Part shown: positions 3,160 through 15,518 of the stretch, in pieces
Layout: each line of letters opens with the position of its first letter
Numbering within the stretch: position 1 is the stretch's first letter
Assembly: GCA_963777155.1 (NCBI GenBank)
Contig: CAVZPM010000010.1
Coordinates: 1 to 23,471 of the forward strand
Direction: 5' to 3'
Length of the DNA: 23,471 bases
DNA from: Candidatus Bathyarchaeota archaeon
GTDB lineage: Archaea; Thermoproteota; Bathyarchaeia; Bathyarchaeales; Bathycorpusculaceae
Made by a program: the position numbers and the translations under genes
Notes under the pieces: generated by a model
Seen by the model: the letters and a program-made list of their open reading frames with translations, nothing else
What the model was told of the DNA's origin: nothing
The model's database searches: none

Positions 3160-4623
3160 TTACCCTTTTAAGGAAGCTGCAAACCCTTGCAAAACATCTC
3201 TGATTGATTGAATCAGTGGATGTTTAATCGTTGTATCCCTAAGCGACTCTAGACGGTCCACTCTGAAGTAAATAGGCGGATGCGAATCTAATCCAACCCA
3301 TTCTTGTAGGCGGAAGTTGGGTGTTCGCTCAAATAGTAGCCTGTGAAAACCGATTTTCTCAAGTGCTTTCGCCATAACTTTGGGTTGCCCCATCATCATA
3401 GCTGACGTCAGGTCTGCGCGTGCTTCAAAAAATTTTGCAATGAAGAATATGAGGGTCATGACTGCGAAGAAGTAGACAAAGAACAGAAAAGACGAAAATA
3501 TGACTGGGAACAAAGAGAGCAGCACATAGAACCTGAATAAGAACTCTGCGCTTAATAGCCCGAACAGAATTAGTGGGTCTCTGCCTTTTAGGTGACCAAA
3601 TTCGTGACCCAAAACGCTTACGACTTCAGGCTCTTCCAACTGGACAAGTAATCCAGTTGTTATCAAAACTATGCCTCTACTTGGACTGGGACCGGAAGCA
3701 GCGGCATTAGGAACCATCGTGTTTGAAATCACGATTTTAGGTACTTTATATCCGAAGCGGTCGGCGACTTTCTTTACCATTTCGTAGACATTGATTTTCT
3801 TAGCGGATAAGTTACCTAGTCTACAGGATACATTGTATTTAGCGAAAATTTTTTCTGCTTCTTGGCAATCGATAGCGCCGTGTTTAGCTATTATTTCTTC
3901 GTAGACTTCCTTCTTTAAAGTGGCTAGCTTTTCGGGCGGAATCTGTTTGTAGTCGTCAAGGGTGCCTAAAGAACCAATTGGGGGTTGATATTCCAAGAAG
4001 TGAATGATGGGGTTATCTTTGGTGATTGTCCAGTCGCTTGAACGAGCAATTATCTTGTTGGAGAAAAAAACGAATACGAACTGCGAAGCAATCAAAAGTA
4101 TTGGAACAGTCCAAAAGTAGGATGGATAGAACGTTTGAACAATAAGGAACAGCACAAGACCCAGTCCTATGAATACAAAGGTTAGCAGCACTTGGGTTTC
4201 CAGGAAAAGTCGGTTGAAGCTTTTTTCGTGAAGCGTGACTTTTTCTGGTACGATTTCTTCGCCTTCCCGCCATGCAAAATACCAAGTTAGTTTGCGGGCC
4301 TTTTCCTCAAACAACTCTGTAGCAATCAATACATCCTGTCTTGCTTCTTTGACGGTTGCATCTGAAACATCGGTTTCTAGCGGTGTTATTAATGCGTTTA
4401 CTCTGTCTGTGCCTTCTACTTCAACTTTTATTATTTGTCTCCCCTGTGCATCAAGGACAGAATATGAGATCCTATTGCCCGTCGTAGTTGTTTCTCTAGA
4501 TAAGTTTGCAAATCGCTGTTTTTGTGGAACAAGGTACTGTGTGTAGATGAATTCAAATAGCTTCTCGAAGTAGATTGATGGAACTTCAGTTTCTATCGAG
4601 TAAGAAATGGGTGCAGAAACCAT
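3160..4623 (-). CDS. M48 family (HtpX/Ste24-like) membrane zinc metalloprotease with long N-terminal extension
   Basis: Motifs PNAAASG, LITTGLL, HEFGH (HExxH), FEARAD, ALEKI and SHPPIYFRV, plus several hydrophobic helices. ATG at 4623 is preferred over TTG at 4653. Confidence 0.88.
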
Positions 4624-4836
4624 ATGTCCAAAACCAGTTGTAATATAATCCAAATTGTTTTTTCTAAGTTATAACTTTATTGTTAACAGGCTTACTTTAG
4701 GATTTACCAAGGGGGATAGCGTTTATTAATCTCGGAAAACACTGTTAGGATTGCCCAATTCCAAGGGATAAAGCTTTGTTGACTGCAAATCAACTGTTAG
4801 TTTGGTTTGTTGCCAATGTTATAAATACGAAATGGG

Positions 4837-5244
4837 ATGTTAGAAGTGGCGGCGCCTAAAAAAACCATACTTGTTGTTGACGATGATAAATCGATCCTTC
4901 GCACCTTCACACGGATTCTCCAAAAGAGCGGTTACGAGATTGAAACAGCAGAAACAGGCAAAGAAGCAACAGAAAAAGCAGAAAAAAACCACTATGACCT
5001 TGCACTGGTAGACATCAGGCTTCCAGACATGGATGGAACGGATCTGCTCGCAAAACTCAAAAAGCAGCTTCAGCACACTGTTAAGATAATGATTACTGGT
5101 TTTCCATCACTCGAAACTGGCGTTAAAGCCCTCGATGAAGGCGCTGATGCTTATTTGGTTAAGCCTGTGAAGCCTCAGGAACTGCTTGTTCTGTTGGAAG
5201 AGAAACTTAAGAACCGCGAAGAGGCTACTGAATTAAGCCATTAA
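4837..5244 (+). CDS. Stand-alone response regulator receiver (CheY-like) protein
   Basis: Motifs ILVVDDD, phosphoacceptor DIRLPDMDG, IMITG and YLVKP; no output domain. Confidence 0.93.
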   Translation: MLEVAAPKKTILVVDDDKSILRTFTRILQKSGYEIETAETGKEATEKAEKNHYDLALVDIRLPDMDGTDLLAKLKKQLQHTVKIMITGFPSLETGVKALDEGADAYLVKPVKPQELLVLLEEKLKNREEATELSH

Positions 5245-8407: not shown

Positions 8408-9400
8408 ATGCCAGTCCAAAGCAATGCTGAAAAAGCATTAGCCTTATTTTATCAAAAAAGTATTCAAGCTCATGCTCTTGCAAAACAGGAAATTATTAAT
8501 CAAAAAATTGGTTTAGAAAAGCAGGATGAAGCAATTGAACAATATCTATCGATATGGAATGATAGTATCAGGCAAGGAATAGTGTCGATTGCTTTTGAGG
8601 CGGTAGGGGGAAAGTTAGAAGATGTGATTCCCTTACAGGTTGCTTTGTCTTTTATTGATGCAACTATGGACATTCATGACGACATAATTGATGGTTCAAT
8701 GAAAAAGAAAGGAACCAAAACAGTCTATGGCAAGTTAGGAATATCATCTACTTTACTAATAGGAGACATATTCCTGGTCAAGGGGTTTCATCTACTTCAT
8801 CGAGTTATCGAAAATATTTCTAAAGAGCAACAATCACAAATAATGGATACTGCAAACAACTTTCTATCGGAAGTTGTGAAAGCTCATATCGCAGAAACCG
8901 ATCTACAGTTAAAAAAGTGGAAAGTGAAACCTCAAACATACTTGGGCATTTTGACTCAGAAAGCCGCAGAAATTGAAGGAAGAATGAAAATTGCTGGAAT
9001 CTATGGAAGGGCAACAGAAAAACAAATTCAAGCATTAAGCAAATGCGGAAGAACCCTGGGAACTTTGTTGGCAGTTAGAGCAGAATATACCGATTTGTTT
9101 GAACCCATCGAACTTTCAAATAGGGTTAAGAACGAATGTTTGCCTCTTCACGTCCTCTACGGTCTCCAAAAGAGAGGGTATAAGGAAAAGATATTTACAC
9201 TGTTATCAAAATCGAATCTAACAAATAAGGACTGTACGGAACTTCTGCGAATCCTTGAGAAAACAGGTACACTTACTTCCTTGAATAATCAATTGAGGAT
9301 TATGCAGAAAGAAGCCGCAAGTGCACTATGTATTCTGCCAAACAATAAAGAAAAGGAGCATTTGAAGCTAATCCTCACATCACTATTAGAGGATATGTGA
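8408..9400 (+). CDS. Polyprenyl synthetase (isoprenyl diphosphate synthase)-fold protein with degenerate second Asp-rich motif; candidate ComQ/PalQ-like peptide tryptophan prenyltransferase
   Basis: First Asp-rich motif DIHDDIID and LLIGDIFL are present. RRG is replaced by KKG, KT by KA, and the second motif (FQxxDDxxD) by LAVRAEYTD. The fold call is firm; the substrate call is inferred from context. Confidence 0.8.
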   Translation: MPVQSNAEKALALFYQKSIQAHALAKQEIINQKIGLEKQDEAIEQYLSIWNDSIRQGIVSIAFEAVGGKLEDVIPLQVALSFIDATMDIHDDIIDGSMKKKGTKTVYGKLGISSTLLIGDIFLVKGFHLLHRVIENISKEQQSQIMDTANNFLSEVVKAHIAETDLQLKKWKVKPQTYLGILTQKAAEIEGRMKIAGIYGRATEKQIQALSKCGRTLGTLLAVRAEYTDLFEPIELSNRVKNECLPLHVLYGLQKRGYKEKIFTLLSKSNLTNKDCTELLRILEKTGTLTSLNNQLRIMQKEAASALCILPNNKEKEHLKLILTSLLEDM

Positions 9401-9407
9401 GAATCAC

Positions 9408-9461
9408 TTACCAGGTAAAAACGACTGGTTTCTGCACCTTTTTATTTGAAGACTTACTCAT
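9408..9461 (-). CDS. 17-aa small peptide MSKSSNKKVQKPVVFTW, copy 1 (candidate prenylated-peptide precursor)
   Basis: ATG(9461)...TGG TAA(9408). SD-like AGGAGAAGTGA lies 6 nt upstream and a TATA-like box further upstream. The ORF is exactly duplicated, and repeat homology stops precisely at the stop codon. Confidence 0.75.
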   Translation of the reverse strand: MSKSSNKKVQKPVVFTW

Positions 9462-9513
9462 CCTTTCTCACTTCTCCTGTATCTCGCTAATTGTATATGT
9501 GTACAACAAGTCC

Positions 9514-9527
9514 TTTTAAGCTTTGTG
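9514..9527 (-). promoter_or_regulatory. Putative BRE/TATA promoter for peptide copy 1 (same element at 9736-9749 for copy 2)
   Basis: Minus strand reads CACAAAGCTTAAAA, an A-rich BRE-like segment followed by a TTAAAA TATA-like box, about 53 nt upstream of the ATG. Confidence 0.55.
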
Positions 9528-9610
9528 TTCAACAGACATACAGTTAACTTGCCTGCAGGTTATTCTTCATATTGCACAATAACTCACCGTAGAAATCGGC
9601 ATCCAACGAC

Positions 9611-9626
9611 AAAGAAAAAATAAAGG
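9611..9626 (-). terminator. Oligo(T) archaeal terminator downstream of peptide copy 2
   Basis: Minus strand reads CCTTTATTTTTTCTTT starting a few nt after the TAA at 9630. Confidence 0.5.
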
Positions 9627-9629
9627 TTT

Positions 9630-9683
9630 TTACCAGGTAAAAACGACTGGTTTCTGCACCTTTTTATTTGAAGACTTACTCAT
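9630..9683 (-). CDS. 17-aa small peptide MSKSSNKKVQKPVVFTW, copy 2
   Basis: Nucleotide-identical to 9408-9461, with its own SD-like site, TATA-like box and downstream T-tract. Confidence 0.75.
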   Translation of the reverse strand: MSKSSNKKVQKPVVFTW

Positions 9684-9767
9684 CCTTTCTCACTTCTCCT
9701 GTATCTCGCTAATTGTATATGTGTACAACAAGTCCTTTTAAGCTTTGTGTTGAACAGATATACAGTT
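9630..9767. repeat. 138-bp direct repeat, copy 2
   Basis: See copy 1; offset 222 bp. Confidence 0.97.
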
Positions 9768-9856
9768 GATTTTTGCTATATGAACCCTTAATACTTATTA
9801 AGAAAACACAAAGTTAGTATTAACCTGGCAGCAATCAAACATAGAAGAGCTCTACT

Positions 9857-11203
9857 ATGTGGAAAGCTAAATTACAAGCCGTACCTTCCCTTTTCATAGT
9901 AGCAAACAGCATCTCTTGGTTCTTACTAACTCTTTTCCTCATAATAGACATTCTATACAGTAGTAATCAATTACCATTTGACCAAGTATTAGCAATATCC
10001 GCTTGCTATTTTGGGGGACTAATTCTTTCCTCCATAATTGGCGGTACTCTATTGGCAAAAATATTGTTAAAAAAAAATGCCTTATTAGTTTGGAATATTG
10101 CGGGTGTTTTTTCATGCTTGCTTTTCTATTTCTTCTATTCCCCAACTAATTTAGTTACAACAAGTGCATTATCATTATTACTTAGCTGCTCGATCGGCTT
10201 GGGGATTCCAACTTGTCTTTCACTTTTCGCCACACAATCAAAAACTGAAAAAAGAGGACGTCTTGGGGCAGTTGTTTTCTTCACAATACAGATTCTAGCA
10301 GCATTGATTCTATTACCTCTCGGTGGGGAAGCAATACCGTTTCAGTTTCTAGTCCTGGCTGTGTGGAGGCTGTTATGTATCGGAGGTTTCTTATTTTATA
10401 AACCTGAAGAAAAAAGACCTGAAGAGCAAAAAACTTCACTCTTATCCATTATTAGAGAAAGAAGATTCATTCTTCTATTTTTACCCTGGTTCTTGTTTGC
10501 TTTAATAAATTATATAGAAAACCCCGTTCTGGAACTTGGAATGAGCAAAATAGGACCTGACTTATACAATAATTATGTAGTGATAACTAACGTGATATCA
10601 AGCATAGCTGCCATACCAGCTGGAATACTCTGCGATCTTAAAGGGCGAAAAATAACGGGAATTGCAGGGTTTGTTTTCTTAGGGTTGGGGTACGCATTTC
10701 TCAGCGTCTTCTCAGGTGCAGGAATACTTGCGTACATTTTCTTTATGGTATTTGATGGTATTGCTTGGGGGATCTTATATGTGAACTTTATTTTCGTGAT
10801 TTGGGGTGATCTCTCAGAAGGAAGAAGCAGAGAAAAATATTATGTTCTTGGCGGATTGCCTTTTCTACTTTCAGGTCTAATACAAGTGTTGGTTCAACCA
10901 TTTGCCCAGTACATAAACATAGGTCTTTCATTCTCATTTGCAAGTTTCTTCTTATTTATCGCCATTTTACCATTGGTTTTTGCTCCGGAGTCTTTGTCTG
11001 ACAAAATAATGAAAGAACGAGAACTAAACAGCTACATACAAAAAGCCCTCAACGCAGTTAACAAAACAAAACCAGATGAGAAGAAACAAACTGAGGAAAA
11101 AGAAGACAAGAATTCAGAGCAATCCAAGGGTGAAGAAGACGAAAATAGTCAAGAGACTGAACAAGATAGGAAAGCGCGTGAATTAGCAGAAAAATACTAT
11201 TAA
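9857..11203 (+). CDS. MFS-like multi-pass membrane transporter with a charged C-terminal tail
   Basis: About 12 hydrophobic segments, MFS motif-A-like GILCDLKGRK, EKRGRLGA loop, and PES after the last helix, followed by a Glu/Lys-rich tail of about 70 aa. Confidence 0.8.
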   Translation: MWKAKLQAVPSLFIVANSISWFLLTLFLIIDILYSSNQLPFDQVLAISACYFGGLILSSIIGGTLLAKILLKKNALLVWNIAGVFSCLLFYFFYSPTNLVTTSALSLLLSCSIGLGIPTCLSLFATQSKTEKRGRLGAVVFFTIQILAALILLPLGGEAIPFQFLVLAVWRLLCIGGFLFYKPEEKRPEEQKTSLLSIIRERRFILLFLPWFLFALINYIENPVLELGMSKIGPDLYNNYVVITNVISSIAAIPAGILCDLKGRKITGIAGFVFLGLGYAFLSVFSGAGILAYIFFMVFDGIAWGILYVNFIFVIWGDLSEGRSREKYYVLGGLPFLLSGLIQVLVQPFAQYINIGLSFSFASFFLFIAILPLVFAPESLSDKIMKERELNSYIQKALNAVNKTKPDEKKQTEEKEDKNSEQSKGEEDENSQETEQDRKARELAEKYY

Positions 11204-11228: not shown

Positions 11229-12359
11229 ATGTTCTTCCATGTAATCCTAACCAGTGACTGCAACCTGCAATGTAAATATTGTTTTGGCGAGAGCCTTGAC
11301 GATTTTGACGAAGAATTCGGCGACGACATAGAAGTGGATTACGATTTACCGCGTAAATTGAACTATGATGTGACCTTGCTGGATAACTTCTGCCGCCAAG
11401 ACCCTGATTGTGTTTTGACCTTCTATGGCGGCGAACCTCTACTGCAGATGGATAAGCTAAGGCAAATCATGGATAAAGTATCTCCTAAGTACTACATGAT
11501 GCAAACAAACGGTTTGCTCCTCGATAAACTGGAGTCCAAATATGTCAACCGTTTCCACACAATCCTTGTTTCGATTGATGGACAAGAAACCTTAACTGAT
11601 TCTTATCGTGGCGCAGGAACTTACCGAAAAGTCATCGACAACCTAAAATTGATAAAGAAAAATGGGTTTGCTGGAGAATTAATTGCTCGCATGACTATAA
11701 TGGAGCAAACCGACATAGAAAAACAAGTTAACTATCTCCTGGATAACCCGGACTTTTCGTTTACCTCGATTCATTGGCAACTTAACGCAGGTTTCTGGGG
11801 CAATGATTACCAAAGACGTAACTTTGAAGAATGGACCAAAACAAGCTATATTCCTGGTGTGGAACGTCTGGTGCATTTCTGGGTTGACCAAATACAAAAC
11901 AAAGGAACAGTGCTTAAACTCTACCCAATATTAGGCATAGCCAACTCACTTTTACACCAAGAAAAAGATTGTTTGATGCGTTGTGGAGGTGGCTGGATAA
12001 ACTATGCTATCCAAACTGACGGATACATTATTCCTTGCCCAACCATGTGGGGAATGAAAAAATACTATTTGGGGCATATCAAAGATTCAAACCCGCTTAA
12101 ATTAAACAGACTTTTTGTTAGCGAAAAACCCTGCAGTCACTGCTCAATCCTTGGTGTCTGTGGTGGTAGATGTCTCTACACTAACATAACGAAACGTTGG
12201 ACTGATGAAGCCTACAGTAAAGTTTGCTTTACGGTCTCACAACTAATCAAAGCTGTAGAAAGCGAAATTCCACGCATCCAGATGATAATTAAGAGCGGAA
12301 AAGTCAGGCTGGACGATTTTGACTACCTAAAATATAACGGTGCTGAAATTATCCCATAA
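11229..12359 (+). CDS. Radical SAM/SPASM protein, resembling the AF0577 (TIGR04084) putative peptide-modifying family
   Basis: CNLQCKYC (CxxxCxxC), FYGGEPLL, QTNG and VSIDG. The C-terminal SPASM-type Cys pattern is CGGG...DGYIIPC...CSHCSILGVCGGRC, and the protein ends in AEIIP. The subfamily call is from recognition, not an HMM run. Confidence 0.88.
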   Translation: MFFHVILTSDCNLQCKYCFGESLDDFDEEFGDDIEVDYDLPRKLNYDVTLLDNFCRQDPDCVLTFYGGEPLLQMDKLRQIMDKVSPKYYMMQTNGLLLDKLESKYVNRFHTILVSIDGQETLTDSYRGAGTYRKVIDNLKLIKKNGFAGELIARMTIMEQTDIEKQVNYLLDNPDFSFTSIHWQLNAGFWGNDYQRRNFEEWTKTSYIPGVERLVHFWVDQIQNKGTVLKLYPILGIANSLLHQEKDCLMRCGGGWINYAIQTDGYIIPCPTMWGMKKYYLGHIKDSNPLKLNRLFVSEKPCSHCSILGVCGGRCLYTNITKRWTDEAYSKVCFTVSQLIKAVESEIPRIQMIIKSGKVRLDDFDYLKYNGAEIIP

Positions 12360-13320: not shown

Positions 13321-14691
13321 TTAGTTTTTTGTTTTTTTGATGGGCAATGATATGGTAAATCTTGTTCCTTTGTTAGGTGAACTTTCGACGGCAATTTTGC
13401 CTTCATGTGCTTCTATCATGCGTTTACAAATTGCTAATCCAAAACCCATCCCTTGCGCTTTTGTAGTAAAGAGAGGCGTAAAGATTTTTCCGATGACATC
13501 TTCAGACATTCCGATGCCATTGTCAGCAAATAAAAAATCAACCATTTCACTATTTTCACTGCTACTTATCTCAAGGGTTCCACCATTAGGCATTGCATCA
13601 AAAGCATTCTTAATGAGGTTTGTAAACACTCGTTCAATTTTGTTGGCGTCCACCCAAATAACCGATTCACTGGGAATCTTTTGGATTATTTTGACATTAC
13701 TGGGTATCTTTATTGAGAGCAACACATAGTTTATCAGAGATTTGGGCGAATACTCTTCGAGGTCTAAATGGATTTCACGGCTAAAATCGAGCAAGTCAGC
13801 AACGATGCTATTTGCGTGGTCAACTGCCCTTTCGATGGTGGTGAGCATTTCATAACTGGTTTCGTCAATATTTGACCCTTGTTTTTTTCTAACAAAATAA
13901 GTGGCGTTCTTAATTGCAGCAAGCGGATTGCGAAGGTCATGACCAACCATACCCGCCATCTCGCCTACAGTAGCTAACCGCTCGGACTGGATAAGACGTG
14001 ATTGAGCCTCGACTAAGTCTTTGGTTCTTTCTACAACCAGCACTGATAATTGATCTGCATGTCGTTGTATTTCATCCTGCAAAGCTTTGCGCTGAATAGT
14101 TTCGCGGTAGGTACTTTTACGATAGGAATGCATCCGCCAAGCGCTAAAGGCAGCGATCAAATTCGCTACGAGCATGCTGAAAATAAGTGTATAGACAACT
14201 GATGCAGTCGCATTGTTTGATGGGTTAAGAATAATTATTGATTCACCAATTGAGGCTAAGGAAGCCAAAAAAACTTGGTACTTAAATTTGAATGGAACAA
14301 CCAGATAAAGAACGAACACGGACACGATTGTTATTACGCAACTGATGACAAAGTTCGAGGGGCGGGTAGCGTTAATGATTCCTCCACCGATAGTAATTGC
14401 AATCACTGACCAGAATATGATTTTATCATATGATCTGTAGTTTTTTACTCTTCCAATATAAATGAACTCTAAAACGATTACAAGTAAGAGCCCGAGTCGA
14501 ATAGAAACTAGTCCATAAAAAATGTTTGATAGCCCAAAAAAAATGTAATCGTTAAAGACAAAGCCAACCAGGGGAATTACAAACAGCAAAATTGCTACTC
14601 TTGACTGAAGAATATCAGCTTTGAGGTATGACTCACGATAGCCTCTTTCTTGGTCTTCCTTTTCTACCCCTGAAATTGGGTTATCCAACAT
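13321..14691 (-). CDS. Membrane-bound sensor histidine kinase (about 5-6 TM helices + HisKA + HATPase)
   Basis: H-box MVGHDLRNPL, N-box NLIKNAFDAM, G1 DNGIGM, F-box IFTPLFTTK, G2 GMGFGLAIC. ATG at 14691 is preferred over GTG at 14709. Confidence 0.95.
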   Translation of the reverse strand: MLDNPISGVEKEDQERGYRESYLKADILQSRVAILLFVIPLVGFVFNDYIFFGLSNIFYGLVSIRLGLLLVIVLEFIYIGRVKNYRSYDKIIFWSVIAITIGGGIINATRPSNFVISCVITIVSVFVLYLVVPFKFKYQVFLASLASIGESIIILNPSNNATASVVYTLIFSMLVANLIAAFSAWRMHSYRKSTYRETIQRKALQDEIQRHADQLSVLVVERTKDLVEAQSRLIQSERLATVGEMAGMVGHDLRNPLAAIKNATYFVRKKQGSNIDETSYEMLTTIERAVDHANSIVADLLDFSREIHLDLEEYSPKSLINYVLLSIKIPSNVKIIQKIPSESVIWVDANKIERVFTNLIKNAFDAMPNGGTLEISSSENSEMVDFLFADNGIGMSEDVIGKIFTPLFTTKAQGMGFGLAICKRMIEAHEGKIAVESSPNKGTRFTISLPIKKTKN

Positions 14692-14869
14692 CTTAGCGCT
14701 CTCTCGCACAAGAATCTGCTAAGAGGTATTTGTGATTTGCTCCAATTCAAAGGAGTAAATTCAATTGATAGAGCGTAGTTCTTTGCTTCACTATAGAGTT
14801 TGTCCGGCAAGGATCATACGACAACTTTCTGTATCATTAACACATCTGAAAACGGTAATGGTTGGGCGG

Positions 14870-15439: not shown

Positions 15440-15518
15440 GGGGCCGTCGTCTAGCATGGTTCAGGATACATGCCTGGGGCGTATGCGATCCTGGGTTCAA
15501 ATCCCAGCGGCCTCACCA
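15440..15518 (+). tRNA. tRNA-Pro(GGG), intronless, CCA encoded
   Basis: Acceptor stem GGGGCCG/CGGCCTC, D-arm GTCTAGCATGGTTCAGGAT, anticodon arm CATGC-CTGGGGC-GTATG, T-arm CTGGG-TTCAAAT-CCCAG, and an ACCA end. Confidence 0.95.

Follow-up and report, generated by a model that had tools for sequence, protein, structure and literature searches.

The window, i.e., the whole stretch of DNA analyzed in this study, comprises 23,471 nucleotides of contig CAVZPM010000010.1 (positions 1 to 23,471, forward strand; assembly GCA_963777155.1) from a Candidatus Bathyarchaeota archaeon. Our subject is a compact core cassette within it, made up of an enzyme derived from the isoprenyl diphosphate synthases (IPPS), a convergent micro-gene and, divergent from the latter, a transporter of the major facilitator superfamily (MFS). 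A sequence-only reading of the window had seen in this arrangement a system of the ComX or PalX type, in which an IPPS homolog prenylates the C-terminal Trp of a small peptide.

Layout of the cassette

All features are collected in Table 1. The layout described by the sequence-only reading was recovered in every respect. The stop codon of the synthase gene and that of the convergent micro-open reading frame (micro-ORF) are separated by 7 nt (9401-9407), and the reverse complement reads ATG...TGGTAA, i.e., 17 codons ending in Trp. The micro-ORF is present twice in a direct repeat with 97% identity, with a start-to-start distance of 222 nt and the same peptide encoded by both copies. Each copy is equipped with a Shine-Dalgarno (SD)-like stretch, a TATA-like box and two operator-like 17-mers of its own, and the MFS gene (PF07690) is divergent from both micro-ORFs. 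That reading had made no mention of three nearby genes, which encode a radical SAM/SPASM protein, a small winged helix-turn-helix (wHTH) protein and a HisKA histidine kinase.

All 23 sequencing runs listed as sharing words with the window are of DNA, none of RNA, and contain at most 0.15 of these words. Read-derived contigs matching the window at 90% likeness were available from the runs X1, X2, X3, and X5; these are short contigs of related strains, none of which spans both repeat copies, so the tandem duplication rests on the assembly. Tandem copies of the micro-ORF unit were also found in two related loci, L027 (7002-7312, spacing 263) and L039 (7001-7357, spacing 309). Since the three spacings differ, the unit has been duplicated more than once. 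An Rfam scan of the window at the gathering threshold returned a tRNA only and no RNA family in the spacer between synthase and MFS gene.

Table 1. Features of the cassette and of its surroundings in the window.
Feature	Position	Strand	Evidence or remark
IPPS-like protein (trans-isoprenyl diphosphate synthase fold), 330 aa	8408-9400	+	PF00348, 63.7 bits; stop codon 9398-9400
Micro-ORF copy 1, 17 codons plus stop, MSKSSNKKVQKPVVFTW	9408-9461	-	translation, homologous ORFs, coding signatures
Micro-ORF copy 2, identical peptide MSKSSNKKVQKPVVFTW	9630-9683	-	translation, direct repeat
Tandem duplication	9408-9772	.	two 143-nt copies, 9408-9550 and 9630-9772; unit 222 nt
SD-like stretch of micro-ORF copy 1, minus strand GGAGAAGTGAG	9467-9477	-	copy 2 equivalent 222 nt further on
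Promoter/operator of micro-ORF copy 1	9492-9542	.	two 17-mers around TATA-like box; layout kept family-wide
17-mer TGTATATGTGTACAACA of copy 1 operator	9492-9508		
TATA-like box TTTTAAGC of copy 1	9514-9521		
Inverted 17-mer of copy 1, minus strand TGTATGTCTGTTGAACA	9526-9542		
Promoter/operator of micro-ORF copy 2	9714-9764	.	17-mers 9714-9730 and 9748-9764; TATA-like box ~9736-9743 between
MFS transporter, 448 aa	9857-11203	+	PF07690, 56.7 bits vs cut-off 33.4
Radical SAM/SPASM protein, TIGR04084 (AF0577 family)	11229-12359	+	308.2 bits vs cut-off 225
Small winged-HTH protein, 92 aa	12503-12781	-	weak MarR_2/HTH_24 matches, below cut-offs
HisKA histidine kinase	13321-14709		2 kb from cassette
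M48 (Ste24/HtpX-type) peptidase gene	3160-4653		upstream of cassette
Stand-alone receiver-domain gene	4837-5244		upstream of cassette
tRNA gene	15440-15515		Rfam match

Conservation and coding signatures of the micro-ORF

Among one-per-species genomes, 234 relatives of the synthase were confirmed by tblastn. All locus counts out of 80 given in this study refer to the 80 best-scoring of these relatives, which are not a random sample. A scan of the flanks of these archaeal homologs bore out the arrangement seen in the window: a small convergent ORF occurs at the equivalent site in about 76 of the 80 loci, and an MFS gene lies directly downstream of the synthase homolog in 78. Nearly all loci have a minus-strand ORF rich in K/R that either stops at a distance of 2-53 nt from the stop codon of the enzyme gene or slightly overlaps it. 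The count of about 76 is composed of filter candidates in 75 loci, less a spurious candidate in L086 that was dropped, plus two loci, L060 and L073, whose K-rich ORFs lack the Pro motif. These two were missed by the motif pattern, as were plausible ORFs in L081 and L091. Canonical start codons are lacking in the candidates of L077 and L088, which stand outside the set of 69 distinct peptides analyzed below; the K/R-rich frame of L090 does not begin with a canonical codon either, and L037 could not be scored because the synthase frame runs across the peptide region.

Four genomes of the same genus carry one convergent ORF each in a spacer of about 190-200 bp between synthase and MFS gene, encoding MKKATKKEMRKPVVFAW, MEKRRAIRKKPKVLAW, MEKKRTVRRKPKVLAW, and MKATKEVRKKPVRFSI, respectively, and convergent ORFs are likewise present at more distant loci, where the enzymes share 27-36% identity. 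The same arrangement in related loci, together with the conserved amino acid pattern, indicates that the micro-ORF is more than a chance open frame.

Several signatures bear on translation. The Arg of the P-x-R motif is encoded by all six codons in 58 distinct contexts (AGA 18, CGA 14, CGG 8, AGG 7, CGT 6, CGC 5), and four codons are used for its Pro. Among 17 sequences from the clade of the window, synonymous changes make up 0.30 of the codon differences in the ORF frame versus 0.10 and 0.09 in the other frames of the same strand; the share is 0.24 in the opposite-strand frame that shares the wobble positions. Start codons (n = 72) are distributed as ATG 59, GTG 6, TTG 5, and none in two cases. 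An SD-like 4-mer or longer stretch within -18 to -3 precedes 59 of 71 micro-ORFs, compared to 9.5% of random 16-mers from the same loci. Finally, contigs of a related strain (runs X1 and X2, from one study) show deletions of 1 and 2 nt, net 3 nt, inside the micro-ORF at a depth of about 3, which is weak evidence, and an insertion of 4 nt upstream of it. As far as sequence signatures can tell, the micro-ORF is a real, conserved, coding, and hitherto unannotated gene of the Bathyarchaeia, with selection acting at the protein level. A whole-genome scan for further micro-ORFs with a P-[VILM]-R motif yielded three unconvincing matches, none beside an IPPS gene, with a pattern that misses the window's own peptide.

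The spacers of L016, L018, and L019 show conserved frames, with ...TKKPLGPIRGVWF in the first and ...ITNKPLRPIRSWWM in the second of these loci. A GGAGG-like stretch precedes the frame, which contains neither ATG nor GTG nor TTG; translation may therefore start at a non-canonical codon there.

Features of the peptide family

The 69 distinct peptides are 12-22 aa in length (median 16) and carry a net charge of +3 to +9. They share a common build, in which the N-terminal half is rich in Lys/Arg, the core follows the pattern P-[VILM]-R, and the tail is short and either hydrophobic or aromatic. In the window's clade, the core takes the form KKP-x4-[W/I/L]. The peptides are leaderless, and in the window an in-frame stop lies three codons upstream of the ATG. 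Cys occurs in only two of the 69. The tails are highly variable across loci while the enzyme groove, described in the next subsection, is conserved.

Trp is found anywhere in 41 of the 69 peptides, within the last three residues in 38, and at the C-terminus in 18; 12 peptides do not contain any aromatic residue at all, e.g., ...EVPVRVLP and ...KPIRLSI. Within the window's clade, W is C-terminal in 12 of 17 aligned peptides, and the remaining five end in I or L. The Trp-centered view of the peptide, as taken from the window alone, is therefore not supported for the family: W-ending peptides are a minority of 18 among 69, 28 lack Trp altogether, and even the window's own clade is not uniform.

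A remodeled isoprenyl diphosphate synthase

The best NCBIfam match of the window enzyme is IdsA with 90 bits against a cut-off of 468, and all IPPS equivalogs stay far below their cut-offs. A family profile search identified PDB 1wy0 as the closest solved relative (E-values of 1.2e-39 and 2.1e-36). The entries 9v4g, 9v4h, and 9v4i, titled 'prenyltransferase', match the profile no better than ordinary synthases do (E-values of 5e-26 and 1e-23). The genome also encodes a canonical IPPS (contig C7:38520-39491, IdsA 177 bits) with the motifs GGKRLRP, DDMID..RRG, and DDLRD. For motif comparison, the window protein and its family were aligned to this C7 enzyme and to 1wy0; the family alignment comprises 78 sequences, i.e., the window and 77 loci, with L037, L084, and L089 left out.

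The first Asp-rich motif (FARM) is intact. It reads DIHDDIID in the window and D-[IL]-H-D-D-x-x-D across the family, with D88, H90, D91, D92, and D95 invariant in 78 of 78 sequences. Most other landmarks of the canonical enzyme are replaced. GGKRxRP has become W-x-D-x-x-[HR]-P (W50 in 78 and D52 in 62 of 78), RRG is reduced to a single invariant K100, GQxxD reads A-[HE]-x-x-E163, KT is K-A, FQ is [LAM]-[TAS], and the GK..G.D stretch is deleted. The column of the canonical FQ Gln (A222 in the window) is occupied by T 28, A 17, S 7, V 5, and I 5 times among the 78, without Gln among these top five. The family ends in L-E-D-L (LEDM in the window copy). In elongating synthases, the replaced motifs (GGKRxR, RRG, GQxxD, KT, FQxxDDxxD, GKxxGxD..GKxT) bind isopentenyl diphosphate (IPP) or the diphosphate.

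The second Asp-rich motif (SARM), DDxxD, is converted to [DEAS]-[ED]-x-x-D229. Position 225 is E in 30, D in 26, A in 9, and S in 9 of the 78 sequences, hence D/E in 56 and A/S in 18, while position 226 is E/D in all 78 and D229 is invariant. The window itself has A-E-Y-T-D, and its own clade carries A or S at the first position. Loss of the first Asp is thus specific to the window's clade, and the family at large mostly retains D or E at this position. Judged from these motifs, the enzyme is a remodeled IPPS paralog that coexists with an intact canonical enzyme.

A region of contig C13 (15281-18274, locus L112) contains a second, divergent IPPS-like gene, with an intact FARM, REELQD in place of the second motif, and no LEDL end; its partners are a membrane ORF of 170 aa and another MFS gene. 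A 75-aa ORF (...PRGPHFW), convergent to and overlapping the stop of this gene, was considered as a partner peptide and rejected, as it was not found in 40 relatives and has no NCBIfam match. The best matches of the C13 gene in the 40 relatives are loci of the main family with at most 38% identity, which marks it as a lone divergent copy.

Predicted docking of the peptide

Two copies of the enzyme (78-row alignment) were co-folded with the peptide (17-row alignment). The three runs reached ipSAE scores of 0.67, 0.67, and 0.66, against 0.02 for the best of three controls, and share at least 92% of their contacts at a partner pLDDT of at least 63. In the calibration, 58 of 80 solved complexes attained the mark, as did 2 of 110 mismatched pairs; these counts hold only roughly here, as the present runs used their own alignments and all calibration proteins have at least 30 residues. 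Peptide residues 8-17 are predicted to contact the enzyme residues 5, 7-8, 10-11, 51-52, 54-55, 221, 224-225, 227-228, 231-232, 280, 284, 325-326, and 328-330. Among these are the family-conserved D52 (62/78), R224 (70/78), F231 (68/78), E232 (67/78), E328 (69/78), D329 (63/78), and L330 (63/78). The predicted interface is composed of the rebuilt region of the IPP site, the helix of the altered second motif (pseudo-SARM) and the C-terminal LEDL. The C-terminal half of the peptide is thus modeled in the former IPP/pseudo-SARM site, and this prediction supports binding of the peptide by the enzyme.

Promoter, operator, and PadR regulators

The promoter layout of the micro-gene is conserved across the family: two inverted 17-mers (TGTAT-N3-TGTT-N-AACA) flank a TATA-like box, followed by the SD-like stretch and the start codon. 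Genes of the PadR family were found in 40 of the 80 loci (67 genes), typically with one directly upstream of and co-oriented with the enzyme gene and a second one divergent. In the window's genome, the PadR pair is unlinked from the module and resides on contig C32:9910-10852 (9910-10230 and 10481-10852), where its members share 62% and 73% identity with module-adjacent PadR pairs of other genomes. A loose version of the 17-mer motif has eight matches in the 2.29-Mb genome, which by a rough estimate is about the chance expectation; four of these are located in the spacer between synthase and MFS gene. One match lies in the 250-bp spacer of the C32 pair, just upstream of one of the PadR start codons. 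This common 17-mer would link the PadR pair to the micro-gene promoter, and its presence in the pair's own spacer suggests that the pair is autoregulated.

Distribution within the Bathyarchaeia

According to their titles, 79 of the best 80 loci belong to Bathyarchaeota, Bathyarchaeia, Bathyarchaeales, or Thermoproteota, and one to Caldiserica. In an even sample of Bathyarchaeia genomes, a family member at E <= 1e-50 was present in 38 of 201 genomes, and in 33 of the 121 high-quality ones. Its occurrences cluster in the family to which the window belongs (21 of 27 genomes) and in some neighboring families (7 of 7 genomes in family f7).

The single locus with a bacterial title, L048 (DBOM01000026.1, Caldiserica bacterium UBA646), holds the full cassette, while the other 79 loci are archaeal. 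This contig is probably mis-binned.

Neighboring genes

A radical SAM/SPASM gene was found in 59 of the 80 loci. Downstream sequence extends over 3.5 kb or more in 61 loci, and 49 of these have the gene. In several loci, an oppositely oriented wHTH gene separates it from the MFS gene, and a wHTH gene stands beside the radical SAM gene in 10 of 80 loci (34-89% identity). Across loci, the radical SAM protein is 57-92% identical, at synthase identities of 30-56% and with hypervariable peptides. Among five genomes whose module lacks the gene, only two contain a copy over the TIGR04084 cut-off elsewhere; the gene is stand-alone in G043 and G045, and none was found over the cut-off in G041 (locus L097, titled as a chromosome record). 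The protein begins directly at its CxxxCxxC motif. Its NCBIfam matches include, as second-best, the ranthipeptide maturase PapB (7.8e-32), and furthermore the cyclophane-forming YhhB and DynA. No paper on the TIGR04084/AF0577 family was among the literature matches listed. A role as core maturase was rejected, since the gene is absent in 12 of the 61 loci, occurs as a stand-alone gene elsewhere, and the module is kept without it. The radical SAM/SPASM gene is a facultative neighbor and, together with the wHTH gene, looks like a separate conserved unit.

Other neighbors are less frequent. A gene for leucyl-tRNA synthetase occurs in 25 loci. Kinases like that of the window were found in 6 of 80 loci and match only its residues 206-458, i.e., the catalytic half and not the sensor half, so the kinase was dismissed as a ComP analog and module member, and a ComP-like receptor, and with it a quorum-sensing role, is unsupported. 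Receivers like that of the window occur in 4 of 80 loci, and the receiver gene, too, stands outside the module. The M48 peptidase, considered as a CaaX-like processing protease, was discarded, as it has no counterpart in any of the 80 loci.

Interpretation of the cassette

A micro-gene that abuts enzymes only 30% identical to each other, an enzyme that keeps the donor motif and has rebuilt the groove beside it, the predicted docking of the peptide in that groove, and an adjoining transporter together point to the peptide as an acceptor and to export of the resulting lipopeptide. The conservation and coding signatures of the micro-gene, the remodeling of the enzyme, the synteny, and the shared operator are observed, binding of the peptide is predicted from structure, and we infer prenyl transfer, export, and a biological role of the product. 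Our preferred reading, tentative and reasonably possible, is that the enzyme is a peptide prenyltransferase and the micro-gene product its leaderless substrate, accompanied by an exporter of the MFS and an operator of the PadR type.

The mechanism could run as follows. The retained first Asp-rich motif would bind an allylic prenyl diphosphate donor, while the IPP site may have been rebuilt as an acidic, aromatic groove formed by W50-x-D52, R224-[DEAS]-[DE]-F-x-D229-x-F231-E232, and the C-terminal L-E-D-L. The C-terminal half of the peptide would dock in this groove and replace IPP as the prenyl acceptor, and the resulting cationic lipopeptide would be exported or flipped by the MFS protein. 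Transcription of the micro-gene might be gated by a regulator, probably the PadR pair, that acts on the two inverted 17-mers around the TATA box. In the window's peptide, the acceptor could be Trp17 (or Phe15). Since Trp is dispensable across the family, either the chemistry would not be specific for Trp or the acceptor would differ between clades.

A number of observations weigh against prenyl transfer to the peptide. The 28 Trp-less peptides belong here, and no single nucleophilic residue is common to all peptides; likewise, the Arg of P-x-R is missing in the window's peptide and in about half of its clade. All characterized peptide prenyltransferases related to the trans-isoprenyl diphosphate synthases target Trp according to the excerpted text of PMC13290415, so that a non-Trp acceptor would be unprecedented with respect to that source. 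The acidic [DE][DE]xxD of most members fits retained metal binding and some diphosphate chemistry. The first Asp-rich motif lies outside the predicted contacts, and the model therefore represents docking beside the donor site and not a catalytic pose. The controls of the co-fold were unrelated 17-mers and not polybasic, so the acidic groove might attract a cationic peptide unspecifically. Moreover, L083 and L086 have kept the enzyme gene and lost the micro-ORF with its promoter and operator, leaving an AT-rich spacer (about 200 nt past the synthase stop). In these two loci, the MFS and radical SAM genes look damaged (L083 shows a partial match for the former and a split one for the latter), and both may be decaying copies.

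Some of these points would also fit a micro-protein that binds the IPPS-like protein unmodified, as a regulatory or structural subunit. It could, for instance, plug or shape the former IPP site, determine activity or product, or anchor the enzyme at the anionic membrane by way of its polybasic half, with the MFS protein handling a small isoprenoid product. The separation of the co-fold from its best control (0.67 versus 0.02, at a calibration that is rough for a peptide of less than 30 residues) is in line with such a subunit, as are the lack of a common acceptor residue, the position of the first motif outside the contacts, and the acidic second motif in most members. However, variable tails opposite a conserved groove characterize substrate cores more than they do a fixed subunit, and the repeated duplication of the micro-gene together with its promoter fits a consumed product better than a stoichiometric subunit. 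We know of no IPPS that is regulated by a subunit of 12-22 aa, and consider this explanation unlikely. To the same degree improbable is a micro-protein that is independent of the enzyme, acting as an unmodified membrane-active cationic peptide with a Trp-containing or hydrophobic tail, or regulating the MFS pump. The order of the genes would then reflect only shared efflux or stress regulation under PadR control. PadR-family regulators commonly control efflux pumps, and the PadR genes at 40 of the 80 loci, the divergent orientation of micro-ORF and MFS gene around a common control region, and the charge of +3 to +9 with hydrophobic or aromatic tails would suit this explanation. Yet the micro-ORF stays within 2-53 nt of the enzyme stop (with few small overlaps) in nearly all loci, the residues specific to the enzyme family form the predicted interface, and an efflux module gives no reason for an IPPS devoid of its IPP-site residues.

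Three further explanations differ in what they make of the peptide itself. It might be the precursor of a ribosomally made peptide with post-translational modifications (RiPP) whose tail is cross-linked or otherwise modified by the TIGR04084 enzyme, with the IPPS-like gene as an accessory. The score of 308 against a cut-off of 225 bits, the matches to PapB, YhhB, and DynA, and the position of the gene behind the MFS gene in 59 of 80 loci speak for it. Nevertheless, it is very improbable in view of the 12 of 61 loci without the gene, the mere two of five module genomes with a copy over the cut-off otherwise, its lack in G041 and its stand-alone position in G043 and G045, and the wHTH gene that intervenes in several loci. 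Furthermore, the protein is 57-92% identical despite hypervariable peptides, only two of 69 peptides contain Cys, and a protein that starts at CxxxCxxC has no N-terminal RiPP recognition element. Scarcely credible is an untranslated micro-ORF, in which case the conserved DNA would be a T-tract terminator of the synthase gene plus duplicated regulatory sequence. The Lys codons do form a T-rich tract on the synthase strand that could be an archaeal terminator, and the repeat unit also bears promoter and operator DNA. Against this stand six Arg and four Pro codons at fixed positions, the synonymous excess in the ORF frame, canonical starts (70 of 72 cases), SD-like motifs (59 of 71 cases), and, as weak evidence, the frame-preserving indel in a related strain; codon usage, synonymous excess, starts, and SD-like motifs thus make an explanation by terminator and regulatory DNA only unlikely. 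The remaining explanation is a narrower case within the prenyltransferase reading, namely strict prenylation of Trp17 in the manner of ComX and PalX to yield a quorum-sensing pheromone sensed by the nearby kinase. The window's peptide ends in W like 12 of 17 in its clade, the second motif of the clade has A or S in place of its first Asp, as in pseudo-SARM enzymes, PalQ needs a C-terminal Trp (excerpt of PMC13290415), and a HisKA kinase lies 2 kb away. Since I or L is the last residue of five among the 17 clade peptides, which are nonetheless conserved, 28 of 69 lack W, the Gln of Trp-directed enzymes is absent, and kinases occur in 6 of 80 loci with the sensor half unmatched, this strict form is quite improbable.

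Comparison with known systems

The prenyltransferase reading was compared to systems described in three sources, PMC13290415, PMC10853753, and bioRxiv 10.64898/2026.08.29.745113, each of which is cited from excerpts. Trp-directed prenyltransferases related to the trans-isoprenyl diphosphate synthases share a Gln just upstream of the second motif, which is said to recognize the indole NH (excerpt of PMC13290415). The window family has in common with the ComQ/PalQ/StheQ-type enzymes the IPPS fold and the intact FARM; the Gln described for the known enzymes in that excerpt was not seen in the family, which has T, A, S, V, or I instead.

PalQ/PalX of Paenibacillus alvei (excerpt of PMC10853753) resembles the cassette in that an enzyme of the IPPS fold adjoins a small gene, whose product in the window ends in Trp. 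The PalQ paper also offers a prediction of the same kind, and here, too, the C-terminal part of the peptide is placed on the acceptor side of the active site. In contrast, the excerpted descriptions present PalX as an NHLP-type precursor with a leader and a conserved Trp in a cluster that holds a histidine kinase, whereas the peptides of the window family are leaderless, 12-22 aa long, and without Trp in 28 of 69 cases, and a similar kinase is found in 6 of 80 loci only. Unlike PalQ, the window family is nearest to archaeal geranylgeranyl diphosphate (GGPP) synthases (PDB 1wy0), which suggests an invention independent of ComQ and PalQ.

ComQ/ComX of Bacillus and StheQ/StheX of Sphaerobacter likewise pair a repurposed IPPS homolog, the pseudo-SARM side of which binds the peptide, with an adjacent gene (excerpt of bioRxiv 10.64898/2026.08.29.745113). 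Their precursors, again by the excerpted text, comprise 55-70 aa with an internal or penultimate Trp, compared to 12-22 aa in the window family. The pseudo-SARM of these enzymes differs from the acidic [DE][DE]xxD of most family members, and the ComQXPA cassette includes a dedicated kinase and response regulator, whereas kinases and receivers accompany 6 and 4 of the 80 loci, respectively. The genes of ComX and StheX are reportedly co-oriented with their enzyme genes, and the micro-gene of the window family is convergent. The ComX- or PalX-like interpretation of the window is consequently retained in part: a real small ORF, a remodeled IPPS, and the predicted docking stood, and the conserved Trp, the Gln, the leader, and a conserved kinase did not.

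The canonical archaeal GGPP synthase (IdsA; 1wy0; the C7 copy) is the best sequence relative and shares fold and first Asp-rich motif. GGKRxR, RRG, GQ, FQ, and GK..G.D are lost or replaced in the window family, which adds W50, D88, and the LEDL end. Radical SAM/SPASM RiPP systems of the ranthipeptide or PapB-like type are distinguished by an obligate linkage to the maturase and by a core with Cys or other fixed cross-link residues, in place of which we find 59 of 80 loci and 2 of 69 peptides. PadR-regulated MFS or efflux modules of the LmrR type combine a PadR pair beside an MFS gene with palindromic operators, and in this respect the window family is similar. To our knowledge, no PadR-MFS module with an IPPS-derived enzyme and a conserved micro-gene has been described.

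Implications

Peptide prenylation by enzymes of the IPPS fold is known from a few bacterial systems, ComQ, PalQ, ChrPC, and StheQ, all acting on Trp (2026 review, excerpt of PMC13290415). No archaeal or Bathyarchaeial peptide prenylation system was found in the literature searched, which did not extend to supplementary files and figures. That the cassette stands for a new class of archaeal ribosomal lipopeptides, with an enzyme derived from a GGPP synthase, a leaderless polybasic acceptor, a chemistry not restricted to Trp, an MFS exporter, and a PadR-gated promoter, is a doubtful but conceivable extension of our reading.

If true, this would be the first archaeal peptide prenylation system and ribosomal lipopeptide, and possibly the first archaeal peptide signal or antimicrobial lipopeptide. 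Enzymatic peptide lipidation would gain a substrate of 12-22 aa that is minimal by nature and has no leader, possibly with a new acceptor chemistry, and there would be a direct route into cell-cell signaling or antagonism in a class of archaea that is abundant and mostly uncultured. Even without lipidation, the Bathyarchaeia would possess a conserved family of genes of about 16 codons, each with an operator-controlled promoter of its own, that gene callers have missed and that has been unannotated so far.

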